From assembly GCA_011364975.1 (NCBI GenBank), contig RDOE01000062.1, positions 1-18,712 on the forward strand: a stretch of DNA of 18,712 bases. The letters are read 5' to 3'. The DNA comes from Promethearchaeota archaeon (GTDB lineage: Archaea; Asgardarchaeota; Lokiarchaeia; Sigyniarchaeales; SOKP01). A program made the translations under genes and the position numbers. Below the pieces are notes generated by a model, which did no database searches, was not told the origin of the DNA, and saw nothing but the letters and a program-made list of their open reading frames with translations. Of this stretch, positions 1,516 through 13,923 are shown one piece after another (within the stretch, counting starts at the first letter, position 1; every line of letters starts with the position of its first letter).

Positions 1516-3915
1516 TTAGCTCAAGATTATTAGTTTTCTTTTTTGAGGTAATGATACTTTTTCAACACCCAGTTCTTTAACATAGTCAACAACATCTATA
1601 AGACTTTTAGCAGATTGATGGAAAAAACACACTTCTTTTGGTTCTAAAGCTTTAATCATTTCAGCTAATTGCTTTTTATCCGCATGCAATTTTATTTTAA
1701 GTTGCGGGAAAAAAGTATTAATTAAAAATGCTCGAAATGGAACTTTCCAAGTATCTGAAAAACAGATTTCTTGACTTCCTTGTATTAAATCTAACCCTGG
1801 GGGATCATGAATAGATCCTGCTAGATATACTAAATTATGAGGATTTCGTCCCACGATATTAATAATATTCCTTATTATTCCATAAGATAAATCAGGAGGA
1901 TGAGATATTATTATATTATTCTTATTTTTTAAAAAGTCTAGATCACTCAAATCAAACCATCTAAATTTTATACTATTGAAGGGATTGGCTTTATCCCGAA
2001 TTAATTTTGAGATTGGTCCATAGATGTATTCGTATCGATGATTTATTACTTGGATATTTTTACGCACCATCATATCTACATAAATATTAGGTCTTTTTGT
2101 ATATCCACGTCGAAGTTGTAATTTTCTAAAATATCTCCAAAATATTAACATAAAGCTAATTGCTAAGCTGGAAGGATCAGTTCCTATAAGAACATTATCC
2201 TCATATTCTGCTTTTTGCTCTAAGAAAAGAATTAGACTATGAAATTGATCGGAGATATTACCAAAATCTTCAGTAGCACTTGTACCATCAATTAAAAGAT
2301 AATCTATTGGTCGGGAAATTTGTTCAAGAAATCTCCTAGTACCGGCAAAAGGTGTTATATCATGAAAAGTATAGTCTCCAGTATAAAGAAATCTAAAATC
2401 TTTTATTTTTGCCAGCATCATTAAAGCACCAGGCATATGACCTCCATGGAAAAATGAAAGGTAACAGTCTTTATCTTTAAATTCAACTTTATCGCCATTT
2501 TCTACATAGATCACATTTTGGATGATTTTTCGATACTCTTCTTCTTCAATTCTATCAGCGGTTTCTTGTTTTAAAAATTTTGAATCCCGTAATAAAAATA
2601 AATCAAGCGTGATTCTAGAACATAATATAGGCACGTCTGGATATAATTCTATTAGTTTTTTTAGACCAGACACATGATCATAATGACTATGAGACACAAA
2701 TATTGCATCTATTCTGGGCAAGGAACTTTTCTCTTTTTCATCGGTTTCATCATTAAATTTATAATTTCTTCCATTATTATTTATGCTTAGACTATCATTC
2801 TCTTTTGAATCGTCAGATAATAACTCTTGCTCAGCTTCTAAAATCATATTTGATAAGTTTTTAAGATACGAGTCTATATATTCAAAGTCGTCAGGTTTGT
2901 CAAAATTTTCTTTTTGTTCAACAGAGTTATCATGTAAATCGCCAGAATTCTCAATCTCATTCACTTCTTCAACTTTTTCTTTTTCAGATATACCACAATC
3001 CAATAGTATATTTAATTTTCCTAATCCCAAAATATGACAATTATGATTTGGTTTAAGAACTATTGGGTAGATTGTTATCCTAATCCTATCTTCATTTTTA
3101 ATTCCAGTAAGGGAAATGTTTTTAAAATAATTTTGATCGAATTTTTTTTCTATTTTATCAATTGCTAAAGAGATCTCACTTTCTCCAACGGGAACTCCAG
3201 TTATATAGAAATACCAGCCGTATATTTTAACAAGTTCTTCGAGGCTTTCATACATCTGGTCTCCAATTAGAGATTTTATTACTATGACTTTTTCTTTTTG
3301 ATAATATATTATTTTTCCTATCGAATTTTTTTCTTTTAATGGGATTTTGTTATTATTATTAAAAAAATCGTCTAAAACACGTTCTATTGGCATCTGAGAA
3401 ATATTATTTGAATTGATTAGCTTTAAATATTGAAAATATTCTTTGGTACGATATAAAGCACGCATATTCTCCTTTTCTTTAAGCTGAATCTTTGCATTCT
3501 CAAATGTATAATGGCTTCTATTGATAGTTGTCTCTTCTTTTTTGTTTTGTTTTGGTTTTTTAGCTTTTTTTGATTCTTTTTTTGGTTCTTCAACAAAGAA
3601 GAACCAACCATATAGTTTGATTAATTTGTCCCGATTCCATATAATTTCTTGACCATTTTTAATTACTAATGAAATAATACGATCTTTTTTAGAATAGAAA
3701 ACCTTTATTATCGAATTTTTAGTTTTATTAGTGATATCATTGTTTTCTAAAAATAAATGATTAAAAACTTCTTTTATAGGCTTTAGAGGTGCGTTCTTCT
3801 TGTTTAATACTGATATTTTTTCTTTATAAGACTTTATTTTATATGCAGAACTAAATTCTTCTCTCTCTTCAATTTCAATCATTTTTTCATTAAATTTAAA
3901 TTCCTCTACAGCCAT
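1516..3915 (-). CDS. MBL-fold beta-CASP ribonuclease, divergent aCPSF1/FttA-like, with two degenerate KH-like N-terminal repeats
   Basis: Motifs: LLDCG (I), SHSHYDH (II, HxHxDH), GGHMPGA (III), LYTGDY (IV), LLIDGT (A), LHAD (B), FFHQ (C; His is typical of RNA-acting beta-CASP enzymes). ATG 3915 is likely; TTG 3927 is possible. Confidence 0.85.
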   Translation of the reverse strand: MAVEEFKFNEKMIEIEEREEFSSAYKIKSYKEKISVLNKKNAPLKPIKEVFNHLFLENNDITNKTKNSIIKVFYSKKDRIISLVIKNGQEIIWNRDKLIKLYGWFFFVEEPKKESKKAKKPKQNKKEETTINRSHYTFENAKIQLKEKENMRALYRTKEYFQYLKLINSNNISQMPIERVLDDFFNNNNKIPLKEKNSIGKIIYYQKEKVIVIKSLIGDQMYESLEELVKIYGWYFYITGVPVGESEISLAIDKIEKKFDQNYFKNISLTGIKNEDRIRITIYPIVLKPNHNCHILGLGKLNILLDCGISEKEKVEEVNEIENSGDLHDNSVEQKENFDKPDDFEYIDSYLKNLSNMILEAEQELLSDDSKENDSLSINNNGRNYKFNDETDEKEKSSLPRIDAIFVSHSHYDHVSGLKKLIELYPDVPILCSRITLDLFLLRDSKFLKQETADRIEEEEYRKIIQNVIYVENGDKVEFKDKDCYLSFFHGGHMPGALMMLAKIKDFRFLYTGDYTFHDITPFAGTRRFLEQISRPIDYLLIDGTSATEDFGNISDQFHSLILFLEQKAEYEDNVLIGTDPSSLAISFMLIFWRYFRKLQLRRGYTKRPNIYVDMMVRKNIQVINHRYEYIYGPISKLIRDKANPFNSIKFRWFDLSDLDFLKNKNNIIISHPPDLSYGIIRNIINIVGRNPHNLVYLAGSIHDPPGLDLIQGSQEICFSDTWKVPFRAFLINTFFPQLKIKLHADKKQLAEMIKALEPKEVCFFHQSAKSLIDVVDYVKELGVEKVSLPQKRKLIILS
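3208..3780 (-). repeat. Internal protein-level duplication (aa 50-110 vs 180-240 of the 803-aa ORF)
   Basis: Ungapped alignment at offset 130 aa, 23/61 identities counted by hand (PI..V....F..NN.I..K.KNSI.K..Y..K...I......G.........L.K.YGW.F). DNA 3598-3780 and 3208-3390. Confidence 0.85.
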
Positions 3916-3995
3916 TAAGATAAACAATTTATCAAGAAAAAAAATGCTTACGTTTTTGAAGAGAGAATTTTAGAACTAATATTATGAGATGAAAT

Positions 3996-4668: not shown

Positions 4669-5337
4669 TTAAATATTTTTTTTATACAAGTTCATGACTT
4701 TTGCGATATCAATAGGTCCATTAATATTCATTAAACTCAATAAATTTTGATCTAAGGGTTGAATAGCATCCTCCACAGGAACATAGTTTATCTTCCAACT
4801 CTTGTCTATAAAATTATGCAATCCATAATTTTCATTTATCAGAATTTGCCTAGCTCTTTCTAAACCTTTTGCTACAGGATATATTGCAAAAAATGGTTCG
4901 AGAAAACTATTCTTCCATCTTGGGATACAACATTCGAATCCCTTAGATTTATCTATCATTAATCGAATGACTTCTGGCTTAATTAAGGGCATATCACAGG
5001 ATAAAAGATACACTTTTTCGAAATTTAATCGTTTAAGTTCTTTTAATCCTGAATATATTCCTAACATGGGCCTAAAAATGTTAGGATGGTGAAATATCTC
5101 TCTATCATCAATAATGAATGTTACATCCTTCGGGAAGGCTATTGTTTTTCTGTAATTAAAGATTTGTTCTTCTGAATGAGCCGCTAAAAATATGTCTTCA
5201 TCCAATTTAGATAATGTTTCTATTTGATGTAAAATTAGCGGCTTTCCTAATAGGTCAATTGCTGCCTTTTCAATTCCAAATCGAGCTGATTTGCCTCCAA
5301 TTAAGATAAGGATCGCAAGATATTTTGGATTTTCCAT
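4669..5337 (-). CDS. mobA: Molybdenum cofactor guanylyltransferase
   Basis: ILIGGKSARFGIEKA nucleotide-binding loop, plus PMLGIYSGL, LSCDMPLI, LEPFFAIY and NINGPID. Confidence 0.88.
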   Translation of the reverse strand: MENPKYLAILILIGGKSARFGIEKAAIDLLGKPLILHQIETLSKLDEDIFLAAHSEEQIFNYRKTIAFPKDVTFIIDDREIFHHPNIFRPMLGIYSGLKELKRLNFEKVYLLSCDMPLIKPEVIRLMIDKSKGFECCIPRWKNSFLEPFFAIYPVAKGLERARQILINENYGLHNFIDKSWKINYVPVEDAIQPLDQNLLSLMNINGPIDIAKVMNLYKKNI

Positions 5338-5511
5338 AATCTTTATTGTTAGTTTTTACAGTAATAAAATTTACATTTTCATTTAAAGTTTAATTTGTTT
5401 TTAAAATATTTTCATTTTGAAAATTAAATCAAATAAAAAAATGCGTAAATTAGATTATTAAACGAGTGCTTAAATTTTTAAAATTCAGTTTTTGTTTATA
5501 TTAAAGAAAAG

Positions 5512-5658
5512 TTATATATCGTCATCATCGTCAAGATCGTCCCAATCTTCATCTTCATCAAAATCTTCGTCTTCATCCCAATCATCTTCATCGAAATCAT
5601 CGTCTTCATCCCAATCATCTTCATCTTTTCCAAAATCAGTATTGGTATACATGGTCAT
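5512..5658 (-). CDS. 48-aa extremely acidic W/F-repeat microprotein (not in ORF track)
   Basis: MTMYTNTDFGKDEDDWDEDDDFDEDDWDEDEDFDEDEDWDDLDDDDDI*. SD-like GAGAGTGA 7 nt before the ATG, BRE/TATA at 5750-5736 and a T-rich tract after the TAA. Same strand as neighbouring mobA. Confidence 0.8.
   Translation of the reverse strand: MTMYTNTDFGKDEDDWDEDDDFDEDDWDEDEDFDEDEDWDDLDDDDDI
5542..5625 (-). repeat. 33-nt tandem repeat (about 2.5 copies) encoding DEDDWDED(D/E)DF
   Basis: Minus strand: GATGAAGATGATTGGGATGAAGACGATGATTTC / GATGAAGATGATTGGGATGAAGACGAAGATTTT / GATGAAGATGAAGATTGG. Confidence 0.9.
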
Positions 5659-5735
5659 TCAAAATTCACTCTCATTTAATTTTTTAAATATTTAATATAT
5701 ATGTGATTAACAATTACAATAGGTAACTTGCTAAT

Positions 5736-5772
5736 TATTTAAATATTTCTAAATTAATAATCGATTAATCGA
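5736..5772 (-). promoter_or_regulatory. Putative BRE/TATA promoter of the microprotein with an adjacent 12-bp palindrome
   Basis: Minus strand AGAAATA-TTTAAATA (5750-5736). Perfect palindrome TCGATTAATCGA at 5761-5772. Confidence 0.5.
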
Positions 5773-6215
5773 ATAATAACCATAATTTAGAACTAGTAAA
5801 GCTTAAATACATGATTAGGCTCAGAGTTTTAAGCTTAGGGTTATAGTAAAATGTAAGAGAGACAATTGGAATAATCTAGTCATTAATTTTATATAATTTA
5901 ATCATTTTTAATATAGGTATATTAGAATTAATTAAAATAATGATATTAAAATATTCCTTGAGTGATATTTAAGCATTTTATATTTCATACAATCTTTTTA
6001 TATTTAATGATGCATCATAGCGCAAGGCGTTTCATTAATATTTATATAATTAGCTTCCCCCAAATCTAATAAAAATTCAATAAGATAAGGGTAAAAAAGC
6101 AAATATTCACATTATTAATGTTCAAATAATCTTTATTTTAATGATAAATGAACCTAATAATTAAGTTAACATATTAAATAGCACTTTAGTTCCTTTTAGT
6201 CTATGAAATTTTCAT

Positions 6216-6230
6216 CCAAAAGTTTATAAG
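6216..6230 (+). promoter_or_regulatory. Putative BRE/TATA promoter for the MTase-Ddl / pan unit
   Basis: CCAAAAG-TTTATAAG matches the archaeal BRE+TATA layout and predicts a TSS near 6248-6255. Confidence 0.5.
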
Positions 6231-6247
6231 TAAAGAGTGTTTTATTT

Positions 6248-6340
6248 GATTTCAAATCTGAGTAAAAAAATTCGCGCAGAAAAAGACTGAGATATTGAAC
6301 AATAAGACAATATTGGCTGCTCTTATCGGGGTTTCAAATC
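6248..6340 (+). ncRNA. Candidate structured 5' leader / small RNA (long irregular hairpin)
   Basis: Hand-folded: 6248-6265 pairs with 6323-6340, GCAG 6276-6279 with CUGC 6317-6320, and GAUAUUG 6291-6297 with CAAUAUU 6308-6314. Begins at the predicted TSS. No known family recognised. Confidence 0.3.
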
Positions 6341-6453
6341 TTTTACTATTTCTATTAAAAGATTTTATAAAAAACTCAAATTTTATTCACTTTAAATTTA
6401 AAAAATTCAATTTTATTAGAAAATTTAATTGTTCTTAAAAAAAATTGCTAAAA

Positions 6454-8388
6454 ATGACAAGTAAATTAGAAAATGGTATAAGCAAAACTCAAGCCGTTAT
6501 AAAGAATGAGAATAAAGAACAAGTATGCATAGGACCAGTTAATGATTTAGAACAGTTTGTTAAAACCGATTGGTGGAAGCATATCTTCAATGCATATTAT
6601 TTAAAAACAGATGGTGATGTAGTTGAAGATCAAAAGATTACCGCAACAGAAATAGATTATTTTATTAAACTACTTGATTTAAAGCCGGAGCATAGAATTT
6701 TAGATCTTTGTTGTGGTCAAGGACGTCATACTATCGAATTAGTAAAGAGGGAGTATGGAAAAGTAGAAGGTTTGGATCGTTCAAGATATTTGATACAAAA
6801 AGCAAGATCTAATGCTAAAAAATCCTCATTATATTGCAAATTTAAAGAAGGGGATGCACGAAAATTACCTTACCCTCCTGATCAGTTTGATAATCTTATA
6901 ATATTAGGTAATAGTTTTGGATACTTCGAAACAGTAAATGATGATCTTCGGGTCTTAAAGGAATCATTTCGAGTCTTGAAACCCTGGGGTAAAATTTTGA
7001 TAGATTTATCTGATGGAGAATATTTAAAAAATAATTTTCAACCACGCTCTTGGGAGTGGATAAATAAAGAATATTTTGTTTGTCGTGAGAGATCATTATC
7101 ATTGGATGAACAACGACTTATTTCACGAGAAGTTATCACTCATGTGAATAAAGGAGTTTTAGTGGATCAGTTTTATGCTGAAAGGCTTTATACGAAGGAC
7201 CAGATAATGCAAATTTTAACCAAAGCGGGATTTTCTGATATAATTTTTCATGGCACAATTACACCGGATTCCCAACGTAATCAAGATTTAGGGATGATGG
7301 AACGCAGAATTATTGTTACAGCTTTAGTTAAGAAAGAATGGTCTACACCAAAAATTAAAGCAAAAGCAATAGAGAAGAAAGTAGCAGTAATTTTTGGAGA
7401 TCCTTCTAAGCCAGATCATTTGAAACCAAGTACTATATTCGATGATGATGATTTTTATACTATTGATCAACTAAAGGCTGCTTTAAAAGAAATAGAAGGA
7501 TATAATTTTGTTTATTTCAATAGTCATGATTCTTTAATTCAGGATCTTCAAAAAGCAAAAGCACAATTAGATTATGTTTTAAACCTATGTGATGAGGGAT
7601 ATTATAATAATCCTCGCTATGAACTGCATATTCCAGCTCTTTTAGAAATTCTTAAAATACCCTATACTGGTTCTGGTCCTCAATGTCTTGCTTTTTGTTA
7701 TGATAAATCTTTAGTTCGGGGAATCGCTAAAGAATTGGATGTACCTATTGCCGAAGCAATATACATCAAACCTGGAGAAAAAATAATTGATCTTCCATTA
7801 TACTTTCCTGCAATTGTAAAACCTAATTTCGGGGATTCAAGTTTTGGAATTACCCAGAAAAGTGTAGTAAATAATGGAGAGGAACTATTAAATGCGATTT
7901 CTCAAATACGAGACCAATTTGGTTATGATAAACCAGTGTTAGTAGAACAATTTTTAACGGGAAAAGATTTAACTATTGGAATTATAGGAAATCCGCCAGA
8001 TAATTATATCGTTCTACCTATTATTGAAGAAGATTATTCTGCATTGCCACCAGATCTACCAAAAGTATGTGGTTATGAGGCTAAATGGATGCCCGATTCT
8101 CCGTATTGGAACCTTAAATCCAAACCAGCAGAATTACCCGAAAATGTTGTTCAAACAATTGAAATTTGCTCTTTAAAGTTATTTGAAAGATTGGAATGTA
8201 GAGATTATGTTAGGTTTGATTGGCGATTAGATAATGAAGGGAATCCAAAACTTCTGGAAGTGAATCCTAATCCTGGATGGTGTTGGGATGGTCATTTATC
8301 CAAAATGGCAAAACTAGCCGAAATTGATTATGTTGATATGCTAAGAAACATTTTAAAAGCTGCAGAACTAAGAATTAGCTCAAGGTAA
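6454..8388 (+). CDS. Fusion: class I SAM-dependent methyltransferase + D-Ala-D-Ala-ligase-like ATP-grasp domain
   Basis: N-half: ILDLCCGQGRH (SAM motif I), GLDRS, EGDARKLPY, LGNSFGYF. C-half: IPYTGS, DKS, PAIVKPNFGDSSFGI, VLVEQFLTG, YEAKW, RFDWR, LEVNPNPG. Start at ATG 6454 or TTG 6445. Confidence 0.9.
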   Translation: MTSKLENGISKTQAVIKNENKEQVCIGPVNDLEQFVKTDWWKHIFNAYYLKTDGDVVEDQKITATEIDYFIKLLDLKPEHRILDLCCGQGRHTIELVKREYGKVEGLDRSRYLIQKARSNAKKSSLYCKFKEGDARKLPYPPDQFDNLIILGNSFGYFETVNDDLRVLKESFRVLKPWGKILIDLSDGEYLKNNFQPRSWEWINKEYFVCRERSLSLDEQRLISREVITHVNKGVLVDQFYAERLYTKDQIMQILTKAGFSDIIFHGTITPDSQRNQDLGMMERRIIVTALVKKEWSTPKIKAKAIEKKVAVIFGDPSKPDHLKPSTIFDDDDFYTIDQLKAALKEIEGYNFVYFNSHDSLIQDLQKAKAQLDYVLNLCDEGYYNNPRYELHIPALLEILKIPYTGSGPQCLAFCYDKSLVRGIAKELDVPIAEAIYIKPGEKIIDLPLYFPAIVKPNFGDSSFGITQKSVVNNGEELLNAISQIRDQFGYDKPVLVEQFLTGKDLTIGIIGNPPDNYIVLPIIEEDYSALPPDLPKVCGYEAKWMPDSPYWNLKSKPAELPENVVQTIEICSLKLFERLECRDYVRFDWRLDNEGNPKLLEVNPNPGWCWDGHLSKMAKLAEIDYVDMLRNILKAAELRISSR

Positions 8389-8392
8389 TTTT

Positions 8393-9598
8393 ATGAATAT
8401 GATTGAAGGAGAAGATAGAAGAAATAAAGATGATGAATTTTTAAAATCATATATCAATCATTTAGAGACAAAAATAAAAGATGTTCAAAATCATATAGAT
8501 TTACTAAAATCGGATTTATTACGCTTGGAAGATGAATCTCAAGGTTTGAAAAGAGAAATTGAACATCTTAATGAAGTACCTCTCTTAACTGGTGAAATAG
8601 AAGATATTTTAGATGAATCCAAGAATCGATTAATTGTTAAAACAAGTTCAGGAATTAGTTATATTGTTAATACTACTGAAAGAGTCAAACAAGAAGATTT
8701 AAGTCCTGGATTACAAATCGCACTTAATCAAAGAAATTTTGCTGCTGTAGAAATTTTACCAACTAAGTTAGATCCGTTTATAAAAGGGATGGAACTTTTA
8801 GAAAAAAATATTGATGTAGCATATGGTGATATTGGTGGATTGGATGATCAAATACAAGAAGTCAGAGAAACAGTTGAGTTACCATTACTAAAACCTGAAT
8901 TATTTAAAAGAGTAGGAATAGAACCCCCCAATGGTGTATTATTTTATGGGGCTCCTGGAACAGGAAAAACACTTTTAGCAAAAGCAGTAGCATCAGAGAC
9001 AAATGCTACTTTCATACGGATCATTGCTGCTGAACTTGTACAGAAATTCATTGGAGAAGGTGCAAGATATGTTAGGGAAATCTTTAAGCTTGCGAAAGAT
9101 AAAGCACCTAGTATAATTTTTATTGATGAGCTTGACGCTATCGGTGCCACGAGAATGGAAGATGCAACTTCAGGAGATCGTGAGGTTAATAGAACATTAA
9201 TGCAACTGTTAAGTGAATTAGATGGTTTTGATGAGAGGAAGAATGTAAAATTCATAGGAGCAACTAATAGAGCAGATATTTTGGATCCTGCCTTACTTAG
9301 AGCGGGAAGATTTGACAGATTAATTGAATTTCCTTTACCTAATCCTGTTGCAAGAGAAGCTATATTTAAAATACATATGAGATCTATTAATATGGAAACA
9401 ACGATAGATCTTAAAAAGATTGTAGATTTAACTGAAGGAGGAACTGGAGCAGATATAAAAGCCATATGCATAGAAGCAGGCATGTTTGCAATACGGAGGA
9501 ATTCTGAAATGGTTACATATGAAGATCTGCTAAAAGCGGTTGAAAAAGTAAAAAATAAATCAAAAGAAGTCCCATTAACTTCTGACTTTTTTACTTAA
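8393..9598 (+). CDS. pan: Proteasome-activating nucleotidase (AAA+ ATPase)
   Basis: N-terminal coiled coil and OB region, DIGGLDDQIQEVRETVELPL, Walker A GAPGTGKT, pore loop KFIGEG, Walker B FIDELD, SGDREVNRTLMQLL, SRH ATNRADILDPALLRAGRFDR. HbYX-like end FFT. Confidence 0.93.
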   Translation: MNMIEGEDRRNKDDEFLKSYINHLETKIKDVQNHIDLLKSDLLRLEDESQGLKREIEHLNEVPLLTGEIEDILDESKNRLIVKTSSGISYIVNTTERVKQEDLSPGLQIALNQRNFAAVEILPTKLDPFIKGMELLEKNIDVAYGDIGGLDDQIQEVRETVELPLLKPELFKRVGIEPPNGVLFYGAPGTGKTLLAKAVASETNATFIRIIAAELVQKFIGEGARYVREIFKLAKDKAPSIIFIDELDAIGATRMEDATSGDREVNRTLMQLLSELDGFDERKNVKFIGATNRADILDPALLRAGRFDRLIEFPLPNPVAREAIFKIHMRSINMETTIDLKKIVDLTEGGTGADIKAICIEAGMFAIRRNSEMVTYEDLLKAVEKVKNKSKEVPLTSDFFT

Positions 9599-9622: not shown

Positions 9623-10732
9623 TTAATTGAAGTAGCCAAGAATTAGAAATACGAACTCAATAACAAATATAAAGGTTAAGAGTATTTCCATATAAAGCAA
9701 GAATTTTTCATTTAAGTTTGTTTGAGCAACGTTATAAATATCTCCAATGGTATCTATTCTATGCCGTATGCTTCCGCTCCATTCTTTTAATTGAAATAAT
9801 TCAGCTAATTGAGTATATAATTGAGCTAAATAAAAGTCACCAAATAATTTTGATACATTTTCAACGCTTTCTAATAGATATGATAAATCATATTTTAATC
9901 GAAGTAAATTTCCAACTCGTTTACTTAACCTTCGCCAAAGTGTACCACTCATATAATAAATCTTGGAAATATCCGATTCAGCTAAAGAGAGTCTTCTTTC
10001 TAATAATTTATCTAAAATTCTTAATTCCAATAATTGATAGTTAGCGATTTCAATAACAGTTAAAATATCATTATAATCTTCAGTCGGATCGATAATTAAA
10101 CCACGATCAAAATCAAAGATAATATAATCATTCTGTAAATAAGAGAAACTGTTTTCTAAAGTTCGTTCAATTTGATATTGATTTAAGTTCAGTTCTGGAT
10201 CTTCTCCCATTAATAAATTTGCTATAAATATTTTATTTTCGTTGATAAAGGATTTAGGGTTTTCAAAAGTGTCTGTAAGACAATACATTGTGTATTTTTC
10301 AGTATCAGTTATTCCGAAATTATAACCAACTTCATCAATACAATCTCTTATTTGATTAAAAATTTTTGTCTCGTGAGATTTTAGGAATTGATTTATATTA
10401 TATTCTATATTTTCAACATAAAACTTAATTTTTCTAATTTCATAGAGTTCATTTAATTGAATATCTGCAAATTTAAGATGGGCTGTTAATGAAATAACTC
10501 CATCTTCATAAATTTTTACTTGTAATTTGACCTCGTTAATATATTGAGATGTAGTAGTAATCCTTTGTATAATTTCTAATCTTATAGGCTCAGGAAAATC
10601 GACGTATTTCGGAGTATCCCTTTTTTTAATGATTACTTTATACTGAATCCCATGTATTATGTCTACTGCTTTCTTTAGATCTATTTTCCTACCAACATCC
10701 GTTAGACGGATTAAAATTACTTCGCCTTTCAA
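9623..10732 (-). CDS. Conserved hypothetical protein, RMD1/DUF155-like, with a C-terminal TM helix
   Basis: QLLELRILDKLL...VENVSKLFGDFYLAQLY...FQLKEW...YMEILLTFIFVIEF resembles the RMD1/Sif2 helical bundle plus terminal TM. Family call is from memory of the pattern. Confidence 0.6.
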   Translation of the reverse strand: MKGEVILIRLTDVGRKIDLKKAVDIIHGIQYKVIIKKRDTPKYVDFPEPIRLEIIQRITTTSQYINEVKLQVKIYEDGVISLTAHLKFADIQLNELYEIRKIKFYVENIEYNINQFLKSHETKIFNQIRDCIDEVGYNFGITDTEKYTMYCLTDTFENPKSFINENKIFIANLLMGEDPELNLNQYQIERTLENSFSYLQNDYIIFDFDRGLIIDPTEDYNDILTVIEIANYQLLELRILDKLLERRLSLAESDISKIYYMSGTLWRRLSKRVGNLLRLKYDLSYLLESVENVSKLFGDFYLAQLYTQLAELFQLKEWSGSIRHRIDTIGDIYNVAQTNLNEKFLLYMEILLTFIFVIEFVFLILGYFN

Positions 10733-12330: not shown

Positions 12331-13923
12331 TTGAATGATGACAAAATTGTAATTAAAAATTTATCAAATGTAATTGGAAAGGATTTTAGTGAAGTGAGTG
12401 TAATAAGAGATACCTACGTTGGCTTCTCATATAAGCAAGAGCAAGAAAATATCACTGAACTTAGTTTAGATTTATCAAAACTTGAAATAGGTGAGAAAGC
12501 TCTAGCTTTGACTGGTGAAATAATTCAGAAACTAGAACACCTTAAAACACTTTATATTAAGTTTTTAAAAGGAGAGAGTATTCCAAATTGGTTATTTCAA
12601 CTTACTAAATTAGAAAGTCTAAGTTTGCGTCAAAATAACTTAAATTCAATCCCTGAGGGAATAAAGAATTTCACATTGCTTAAATCACTGAACTTAGCAT
12701 CGAATGATATAACCGTTTTACCAAAATGGATTTTGGAATTGAGTGATTTGAAAGATCTAAACCTGGAACACAATGATAATCTTGAGTGGAATCAAAAAAA
12801 TCTTGAAATTTTGGAAATATTAAAAGAAAGAGGTGTTAAAATTATAGCAACAAGATTATTTAACTTCCAGCTTAAATATAACCTTCCAAAAGATAAAATT
12901 GAAATAATAAGAGAACTTGAAAGGGAGAACATAGAAAAAGAAAAAATGAAGCAATATGTAAATCCCATTAATATGAAAATTGAGGATGGGAAAATAATTG
13001 AATGGAGAATGTTTGAATATTCATTTAAAGCCTTGCCTGAAAACTTCGGAATCTTTAACGAGCTAAAATCCTTAACTATAACACACACACCTCTCGAAAT
13101 GTTACCAGAGTCTTTTGGTAAACTTACAAGTCTCGAATTTCTCGATTTATCTTCTAATTCCCTTAATAAGTTACCAGACTCATTTAGAAATTTAAAATCA
13201 ATTTCAACCTTAAATTTAAGCAACAACCTCTTTAATGAGATTCCCACGCAATTATGGAGTTTTACCTTATTAACTCATTTAAATCTAAGTAATAATCCAT
13301 TAGGTGATGAAGAAAAATCTATTATTCAAAAAGCTCCCGATTCCATTAGAGAATATTTAAGAAAGAAAGCAACTATAAAAATTTTTATTTCTCATGCAGT
13401 TATAGATTTTGAAAAATATCAAATTGGAAAACTTGTAGAATATCTAAAGAATCAAAAAGAGATTTCTGAAGTATTTTTCTGTGAAGAGGATTTAACTGGA
13501 AATATCGATCAATGGATGCTAGATACAGTTCAGAAATCCCAATTGATATTATTTGTTGCTACAAAGAAATCCCTATATGATTCTGTTGATTGTCGAAATG
13601 AATTACAGCTTGCCGATAAATTTTCAATCCCCATTATTCCTCTGAAAGGTGATGATGTTGACTGGAATGAATTAGCAGAACTAAAATTGTCGAGGGAATT
13701 AGGAATTGAGTTTGAAAGAAATAATTTTGAGTCTTTCTACGCTGATCTATACAAATATATCTATAATTTTAAACGCGAAATTGACCTTATGTCAAAAAAA
13801 AGTCGTCAACAGGGAATTACCAACATATATGAAAGATTTAGGTTGATATTTAATGAAAATATTGAACAATTAAAACGTAGAATTGATCAATTAGAACAAA
13901 GAATAAAAAACTTGGAGAATTAA
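12331..13923 (+). CDS. Soluble LRR-LRR-TIR protein with a C-terminal coiled coil
   Basis: LxxLxLxxNxLxxLP repeats at aa ~65-150 and ~220-324. TIR domain from aa 349 (KIFISH...SQLILFVATKKSLYDSVDCRNEL...IPIIPL). Heptad tail IEQLKRRIDQLEQRIKNLEN. No TM segment or signal peptide seen. Confidence 0.88.
   Translation: MNDDKIVIKNLSNVIGKDFSEVSVIRDTYVGFSYKQEQENITELSLDLSKLEIGEKALALTGEIIQKLEHLKTLYIKFLKGESIPNWLFQLTKLESLSLRQNNLNSIPEGIKNFTLLKSLNLASNDITVLPKWILELSDLKDLNLEHNDNLEWNQKNLEILEILKERGVKIIATRLFNFQLKYNLPKDKIEIIRELERENIEKEKMKQYVNPINMKIEDGKIIEWRMFEYSFKALPENFGIFNELKSLTITHTPLEMLPESFGKLTSLEFLDLSSNSLNKLPDSFRNLKSISTLNLSNNLFNEIPTQLWSFTLLTHLNLSNNPLGDEEKSIIQKAPDSIREYLRKKATIKIFISHAVIDFEKYQIGKLVEYLKNQKEISEVFFCEEDLTGNIDQWMLDTVQKSQLILFVATKKSLYDSVDCRNELQLADKFSIPIIPLKGDDVDWNELAELKLSRELGIEFERNNFESFYADLYKYIYNFKREIDLMSKKSRQQGITNIYERFRLIFNENIEQLKRRIDQLEQRIKNLEN

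Follow-up and report, generated by a model that had tools for sequence, protein, structure and literature searches.

A small acidic, tryptophan-bearing protein gene that accompanies a methyltransferase/ATP-grasp ligase gene in Lokiarchaeal genomes

We examined an 18,712-nt stretch of DNA from a Lokiarchaeal archaeon of the Promethearchaeota (contig RDOE01000062.1 of assembly GCA_011364975.1; the window, hereafter), and in it a minus-strand open reading frame (ORF) at 5512..5658, stop codon included, that runs from ATG to TAA and encodes a microprotein of 48 residues. A first-pass annotation made from the letters of the window had proposed this ORF as a hidden gene, and comparison with relatives bears the proposal out: frame, start, Shine-Dalgarno (SD) site and stop are conserved in two genera, and differences are in excess at third codon positions. 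Judging from these sequence comparisons, 5512-5658 on the minus strand is a genuine conserved protein-coding gene of this archaeon. In the same two genera the micro-gene tracks the 5' side of a gene for a methyltransferase/ATP-grasp fusion (the ligase, hereafter), not the mobA-like gene on its other side.

The translated sequence is MTMYTNTDFGKDEDDWDEDDDFDEDDWDEDEDFDEDEDWDDLDDDDDI. A recount agrees with the composition first reported, as 31 of the 48 residues are acidic (24 Asp and 7 Glu) with a single Lys, and there is neither Arg nor Cys. Trp at 16, 27 and 39 alternates with Phe at 9, 22 and 33; the alternation had been described correctly, but not its spacing, said to be 5-6 residues throughout, since the gaps are 7, 6, 5, 6 and 6. 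The motif EDWDDL is also present as described, completed by L42, and likenesses to LIR, WASP-A and kinesin-light-chain motifs had been drawn; these arise easily by chance in a sequence of such low complexity. With a family alignment, AlphaFold2 gave the microprotein no secondary structure (mean pLDDT, the predicted local distance difference test score, 60.5), and we regard it as a predicted disordered polyanion. Much of the ORF is a tandem repeat (5549-5625, a 33-nt unit in 2.3 copies, 95% identity). Because the region is a repeat of GAN codons, two further frames are open across it, a 67-residue Ser-rich ORF on the plus strand (5492-5695) and a 45-residue ORF on the minus strand. The antisense Ser-rich frame had been thought the only one in the mechanical ORF list, which in fact includes the 48-residue ORF. 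The exact sequence is also present in the ESM Atlas, and must therefore have been called by some gene caller; the nearest clusters there (score 0.86) are nameless and under the tool's meaningful level.

Proteins of this kind are nearly invisible to HMMER owing to its correction for composition bias, and for this reason we relied on neighbouring genes as anchors and on a composition scan. A search of 41 relatives with the single protein recovered just 1 orthologue, and in a word-indexed database the same query returned 365 candidates, none at E <= 0.01. None of eight family sequences was found in a collection of 15 billion proteins. A profile built from 10 family sequences is itself insensitive, the window's own copy scoring below threshold; with this profile, 13 of 135 genomes of the GTDB family matched (the window's genome included) and 0 of 19 in other families, so that the microprotein family is seen, by an insensitive profile, in one GTDB family of the order only. 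A profile search of 1.84 billion representative proteins gave 5 matches at E <= 0.001, all of 45-69 residues and of the type found in the sister genus.

The genus of the window comprises 42 genomes, of which 40 have a mobA-like gene (30 loci taken) and 24 have the ligase (25 loci taken). At all loci where the mobA-like gene and the ligase stand next to each other in divergent orientation (10/10), the space between them holds an acidic ORF with Trp repeats on the mobA strand. The ten coding sequences range from 129 to 186 nt, every length being a multiple of 3, and they have in common a non-repetitive N-terminus, MNIEYEIGLKKDE or MELEYNLGMEKDE, and a GGAG-type SD site each. Pairwise differences at codon positions 1, 2 and 3 number 340, 251 and 830 (the pairs are not independent). 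In the sister genus, the ORF is found 743-986 nt upstream of the ligase and divergent from it in 21 of 30 ligase loci, or 21 of the 25 with at least 1 kb of upstream sequence. Among ligase loci of GTDB genomes with archaeal labels, 15 of 20 have the ORF; as to the rest, two are short of upstream sequence, and none was found in L080, L094, L139 or a Nitrososphaeria locus. Frame-disrupting variation, which had been named as something to look for, is seen in one possibly broken copy, that of the sister-genus genome G108 (L067 / L206), which lacks an ATG, has a TGA in frame shortly before it and may be decaying.

In an alignment of 21 sequences, M1, D17 and W39 are invariant and W16 is kept in at least 90%, both Trp residues standing in an Asp/Glu context. 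The expectation of conserved W/F spacing thus holds for W16 and W39 and fails for Phe, as the Phe positions of the window copy read I, T, W, F or D in relatives. The commonest distance between hydrophobic or aromatic residues is 6 (35 of 111 spacings). Members of the family have about 34-62 residues, with a short, often Lys-containing N-terminus followed by a body of almost pure Asp/Glu, and their net charge ranges from -15 to -43. Tyr or Phe closes the chain in 10 of the 21 aligned sequences and in 18 of the 21 sister-genus ORFs. Given the absence of predicted structure and the two conserved Trp-acid positions, a disordered acidic-aromatic binder is a fair working model; of the disordered multivalent adaptor first suggested, the disorder (as a prediction) and two Trp-acid sites stand, and the conserved Phe residues do not.

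The length of the ORF does not set it apart from chance, since, when the 1.1-kb intergenic region (5338-6444) was shuffled 2000 times, the longest ATG-initiated ORF reached at least 48 codons in 458 cases. Its composition and conservation do exceed chance. Asp and Glu make up 65% of the microprotein compared with 12.1% in the long ORFs of the genome, and Trp 6.3% compared with 1.0%. The ORF has a GC content of 36% as against 15% and 21% in its flanks, and TGG codons are kept in the orthologues even though the genome as a whole has 30.6% GC.

Signals for expression had also been proposed, and most of them can be placed. An SD-like GAGAGTGA (5666..5673, minus strand) lies 8-15 nt before the ATG, with GGAG or GAGG 11-14 nt before the starts of orthologues. 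Upstream are AT-rich, TATA-like stretches, of which AAATATTTAAAT (coding strand; 5737..5748, minus strand) overlaps the invariant columns 82-89 of a spacer alignment of 9 genomes, and relatives have a TTTATATA box 62-70 nt ahead of the start; from sequence and position, the box at 5737-5748 would act as a promoter element. The palindrome is there too, although it is imperfect (5754-5779, 16-nt arms, 88% complementary). Beyond the two TATA-like boxes, the alignment of the spacer between micro-ORF and ligase contains no conserved block, and Rfam gave just two sub-threshold chance matches in it. In the region 3' of the ORF (5431..5511, minus strand), two T-tracts, one right behind the stop (5503-5511) and one further on (5431-5443), could end transcription ahead of mobA.

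The gene downstream, a MobA-like nucleoside triphosphate transferase (4669..5337, minus strand), is co-directional with the micro-ORF at a distance of 175 nt, and linkage to mobA had been suggested as a synteny check. It turns out to be a frequent neighbour and not a conserved one: the micro-ORF is absent at all 20 mobA loci that lack the ligase, which weakens the idea of a mobA operon, and in the 6 of these loci for which the neighbour was read, a CitMHS-type transporter gene is divergent from mobA (6/6). Conversely, the micro-ORF is found beside the ligase without mobA at L069, L082, L089, L093, L095 and L102, and in the last four it is co-directional with the ligase and directly upstream of it, with differing genes on the far side. 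The synteny check therefore points to the ligase as the conserved partner in gene order, a gene that the first-pass annotation did not mention; pan and an RNase had been taken as the meaningful neighbours, and the ligase gene in fact stands between the micro-ORF and pan. For the family of the window, we met the micro-ORF nowhere but next to the ligase or in genomes that carry the ligase. A leader peptide for the ligase was considered and ruled out, as the ORF is divergent from the ligase gene in most genomes with about 740-990 nt between them.

The ligase (6445..8388, plus strand; 647 residues), divergent from the micro-ORF, joins a class-I S-adenosylmethionine-dependent methyltransferase domain to an ATP-grasp domain like that of D-Ala-D-Ala ligase (Ddl), as assigned with Pfam, NCBIfam and the PDB. 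The best solved relative of the methyltransferase domain is 9ri2, labelled 'methyltransferase, putative'. The ATP-grasp domain is of the D-Ala-D-Ala-ligase type (Dala_Dala_lig_C/ATP-grasp) and reaches no NCBIfam cut-off. Scanning the GTDB species genomes, we obtained 80 ligase loci, 20 with archaeal and 60 with bacterial labels. Of the archaeal ones, 19 carry Asgard or unspecified archaeal labels, mostly Promethearchaeota, which bears out the Asgard origin first supposed, and one is Nitrososphaeria; the bacterial ones come from Planctomycetota, Atribacterota, Aminicenantes, Desulfobacterota, Chlamydiota and others, at 60-71% identity. Over Lokiarchaea and many bacterial phyla identity is 60-76%, with a mean column identity of 74% in an alignment of 50 sequences, and the gene has probably spread horizontally. 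A Lys/Arg-rich N-terminal tail precedes a conserved LGPV motif and is a possible docking site for the microprotein. At the level of listings and abstracts, we found no literature on this methyltransferase/ATP-grasp fusion; the ATP-grasp passage excerpted from PMC11237513 deals with other enzymes.

A paralogue of the proteasomal ATPase PAN (8393..9598, plus strand), above the cut-off of its NCBIfam subfamily model, begins 5 nt after the ligase. It ends in ...DFFT, that is in Hb-F-X and not in HbYX (a motif defined in the excerpted text of PMC12352868). The second PAN of this genome, on contig C124, is 63% identical and ends in ...RLYS, a canonical HbYX. All of the ligase-adjacent PANs whose C-termini were read, the one in the window included, have Hb-F-X ends (9/9; FFT, FFI, LFI, LFM, IFL). 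PAN directly follows the ligase in 6 of 25 loci of the genus and in 18 of 30 of the sister genus, so that the proteasomal ATPase, as first noted, does belong to the neighbourhood. Micro-ORF, ligase and PAN are found together in 14 of 30 sister-genus loci as well as in the window, L084, L086 and L087. Within the genus, genomes with two PAN copies number 16 of 24 among the ligase-positive and 3 of 18 among the ligase-negative, and an acid-Trp micro-gene, either this one or the one at a CofE-like locus described below, occurs in 18 of 20 ligase-positive and 2 of 13 ligase-negative genomes examined. Ligase, Hb-F-X PAN and acid-Trp micro-gene thus tend to co-occur. Listings and abstracts yielded no literature on Hb-F-X variants of PAN. 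Next to these genes on the minus strand (9623-10732) is a gene for a 369-residue protein with a hydrophobic C-terminus and no Pfam or NCBIfam match, which is found again in many relatives, for instance at L041, L080, L081, L082, L087 and several sister-genus loci, either convergent with the ligase or PAN or immediately behind one of them.

The reading that we tentatively prefer, while giving it somewhat less than an even chance, is that the microprotein, as a disordered polyanion, partners the ligase/PAN module and serves it as regulator or substrate. It would form the small subunit of an accessory module, specific to Asgard archaea, with the methyltransferase/ATP-grasp ligase at its core and, in many genomes, the Hb-F-X paralogue of PAN as a further part. 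Its Trp-plus-acid motifs would dock it on the ligase or the PAN variant, at a surface that is basic or binds aromatic residues, and once docked it might act as a regulator or might itself be the protein substrate of the carboxylate chemistry. We infer its binding, its partner and its effect from sequence and gene order.

Several observations weigh against this reading. Among ligase loci with upstream sequence, 13 of 23 in the genus and 4 of 25 in the sister genus lack the micro-ORF, and the intergenic regions of L080 and L094 contain no remnant of it in any of six frames. The co-occurrence counts are confounded by shared ancestry, since the genus consists of two clades, set apart by all of these traits, and the contrast is partly one of descent; the ratios fall to 2/4 against 2/8 when just its more distant half is counted. 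None of the 60 bacterial ligase loci has an acidic micro-ORF in flanks of up to 3 kb, a scan of 19 of the bacterial loci gave no conserved or recurrent partner gene, and the basic N-terminal tail is present in bacteria too. The chief objection is that the ligase, highly conserved as it is, occurs by itself in bacteria. This suggests an enzyme sufficient in itself, probably one acting on small molecules, and leaves the Asgard microprotein no more than an accessory part. Finally, acid-Trp proteins as a class may act generally and not with a neighbour, because two other families of them adjoin unrelated genes.

These other families were found in a composition scan of the same genome, in which 62,403 stop-to-stop frames of at least 25 codons yielded 15 with a 20-residue window of at least 70% Asp/Glu. 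The three shortest of the 15 have three [DE]W[DE] motifs each and the twelve longer ones have none. The second acid-Trp micro-ORF (45 residues; L071:4794-4931, contig C186, plus strand) is downstream of a gene of the CofE-like F420-0:gamma-glutamyl-ligase family. It is kept in 11 of 30 genus loci, with an SD site in most copies, and its N-terminus, MNIELKDD..., resembles that of the window family. The third (66 residues; L072:4999-5199, contig C119, minus strand) is divergent from the gene for a 487-residue HEAT-repeat protein, and is kept in 21 of 30 genus loci with a strongly conserved DDYNDGEWD motif and a tandem duplicate in three. Across the GTDB family, a DNA pattern of the form W-acid...W-acid occurs in 123 of 135 genomes, the reversed control giving mostly 0 and at most 2 per strand. 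We found no literature on archaeal acid-Trp microproteins in listings and abstracts.

With these additional genes in hand, it is conceivable, though we think it unlikely, that the microprotein is a disordered polyanion of general use, not tied specifically to its neighbours. It might then mimic nucleic acids, serve as a counter-ion or chaperone basic proteins, and would be one of several interchangeable acid-Trp microproteins. Both additional families are conserved beside unrelated genes, the pattern is widespread in the family, and the window locus and the CofE-like locus are complementary across genomes: outside the window's own genome, none of the 6 other genomes with the window locus that were examined has the CofE-like locus, and 8 ligase-positive genomes without the micro-gene at the window locus carry the one at the CofE-like locus. 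On the other hand, adjacency to the ligase outlasts changes in orientation and in the far-side gene, and the three families each have a neighbour and motifs to themselves, which argues for partner-specific roles.

A more elaborate possibility, and a rather doubtful one, is a system like that of Pup or of tubulin tails, in which the ATP-grasp enzyme would modify the microprotein or attach it to other proteins, the methyltransferase would tune its charge and the Hb-F-X PAN would select it for unfolding. Acidic protein tails are substrates of several ATP-grasp enzymes, RimK, TTL and LysX among them. The microprotein is carboxylate-rich, predicted to be disordered and often ended by Tyr or Phe in its family, the three genes recur together as described above, and the PAN variant and the micro-gene each correlate with presence of the ligase. 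Pup, of the actinobacterial pupylation system, is a disordered protein of about 60 residues that is ligated through a C-terminal GGQ or GGE by a ligase of the PafA/Dop type and works with Mpa, and the three-gene arrangement is similar in that a small disordered protein is encoded near a ligase and a PAN-related AAA ATPase. However, the microprotein family has no conserved C-terminal residue of the Pup kind, its members ending in I, D, Y, F or N and not in GG[QE]. The neighbouring enzyme is a Ddl-type ATP-grasp fused to a methyltransferase and not a PafA/Dop, with a match to TTL at just E 0.006. Many ligase loci lack the micro-ORF or PAN, and the ligase also stands alone in bacteria, where the microprotein is missing at all 60 loci, in phyla which are not known to have PAN. 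We see only a slim chance of an undescribed Lokiarchaeal pathway of protein modification and unfolding in which the microprotein, anchored by its Trp residues, would be a tag or tail-substrate, the ligase would ligate or modify its carboxylates and a dedicated Hb-F-X PAN would read out the result; if true, such a pathway would be the Asgard counterpart to pupylation or to the tyrosination and glutamylation of tubulin tails.

The carrier proteins LysW and ArgW offer a related comparison. These have about 54 residues, an N-terminal Cys4 zinc ribbon and a C-terminal EDWGE, on whose carboxylate the ATP-grasp enzyme LysX acts. The likeness lies in a small protein with an acidic, Trp-containing stretch encoded beside an ATP-grasp ligase. 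In contrast to LysW and ArgW, the microprotein family has no EDWGE end, NCBIfam gives no match, and the microprotein has no Cys residues and thus no zinc ribbon; the neighbouring ATP-grasp is Ddl-like and not RimK/LysX-like, and no lysine or arginine biosynthesis genes are near the micro-ORF in the window.

An archaeal counterpart of Sem1/DSS1, acting as a cofactor of the proteasome or PAN and as a mimic of single-stranded DNA, had been put forward at first, and we now consider it improbable. According to the excerpted text of PMC8442969, DSS1 and its paralogue CSNAP are highly acidic, intrinsically disordered proteins of 57-90 residues, in which conserved aromatic residues with acidic flanks (Trp in DSS1, Phe in CSNAP) are binding sites, and the C-terminal segment of DSS1 is transiently helical. 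The microprotein family is likewise small, acidic and, by prediction, disordered, with two conserved aromatic-acidic sites in the near-invariant W16 and W39, and a PAN gene of the same module is 2.7 kb away. The family is, however, far more acidic and more repetitive than DSS1, and as far as found it is restricted to the one Lokiarchaeal family in which the insensitive profile detected it. None of 21 members matches the Pfam model PF05160 (DSS1_SEM1) even at E <= 10, a six-frame search of the window's own genome with that model gave no match, and the AlphaFold2 model has no C-terminal helix of the DSS1 kind. The conserved neighbour is the ATP-grasp/methyltransferase gene, not PAN or a PCI-lid protein. 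As to possible partners among PCI-domain subunits of the lid or of TREX-2, a PCI model has 5 weak matches in the genome and also gives matches in 4 of 14 control genomes.

That there is no gene here at all, the ORF having arisen by chance from a tandem repeat rich in GAT/GAA or the real product being that of the Ser-rich antisense frame, has next to no probability in our view: the unremarkable ORF length, the three frames open over the repeat and the empty HMMER-based and large-collection searches would fit it, but it is already contradicted by the conservation data, that is by a start, SD site, stop and frame maintained over two genera despite changes in length, the third-position excess, and the conserved TGG codons and non-repetitive, MNIEYEIGLKKDE-type N-terminus.

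Two further genes of the window may be recorded. At 12331-13923 on the plus strand is a gene for a 530-residue protein with leucine-rich repeats and a TIR domain (Pfam TIR_2, E 1.1e-6), an architecture typical for immune or signalling proteins. At 1516-3927 on the minus strand is one for an 803-residue metallo-beta-lactamase/beta-CASP-like protein with an N-terminal extension of about 390 residues, which is not a standard aCPSF1, as it scores 71 bits against a cut-off of 580.

Genes so small and of such low complexity are missing from standard protein collections and are nearly invisible to searches with hidden Markov models, and the acid-Trp microproteins, of which there are at least three families, belong regularly to Lokiarchaeal proteomes and have been overlooked there. 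No closer relatives of eukaryotes are known than the Asgard archaea. Should the micro-gene, the ligase and the Hb-F-X PAN prove to work together, they would represent a new Asgard way of regulating proteins or of marking them for an unfoldase, and the microprotein would be a prokaryotic functional analogue of the acidic-aromatic disordered adaptors DSS1 and CSNAP of eukaryotes.

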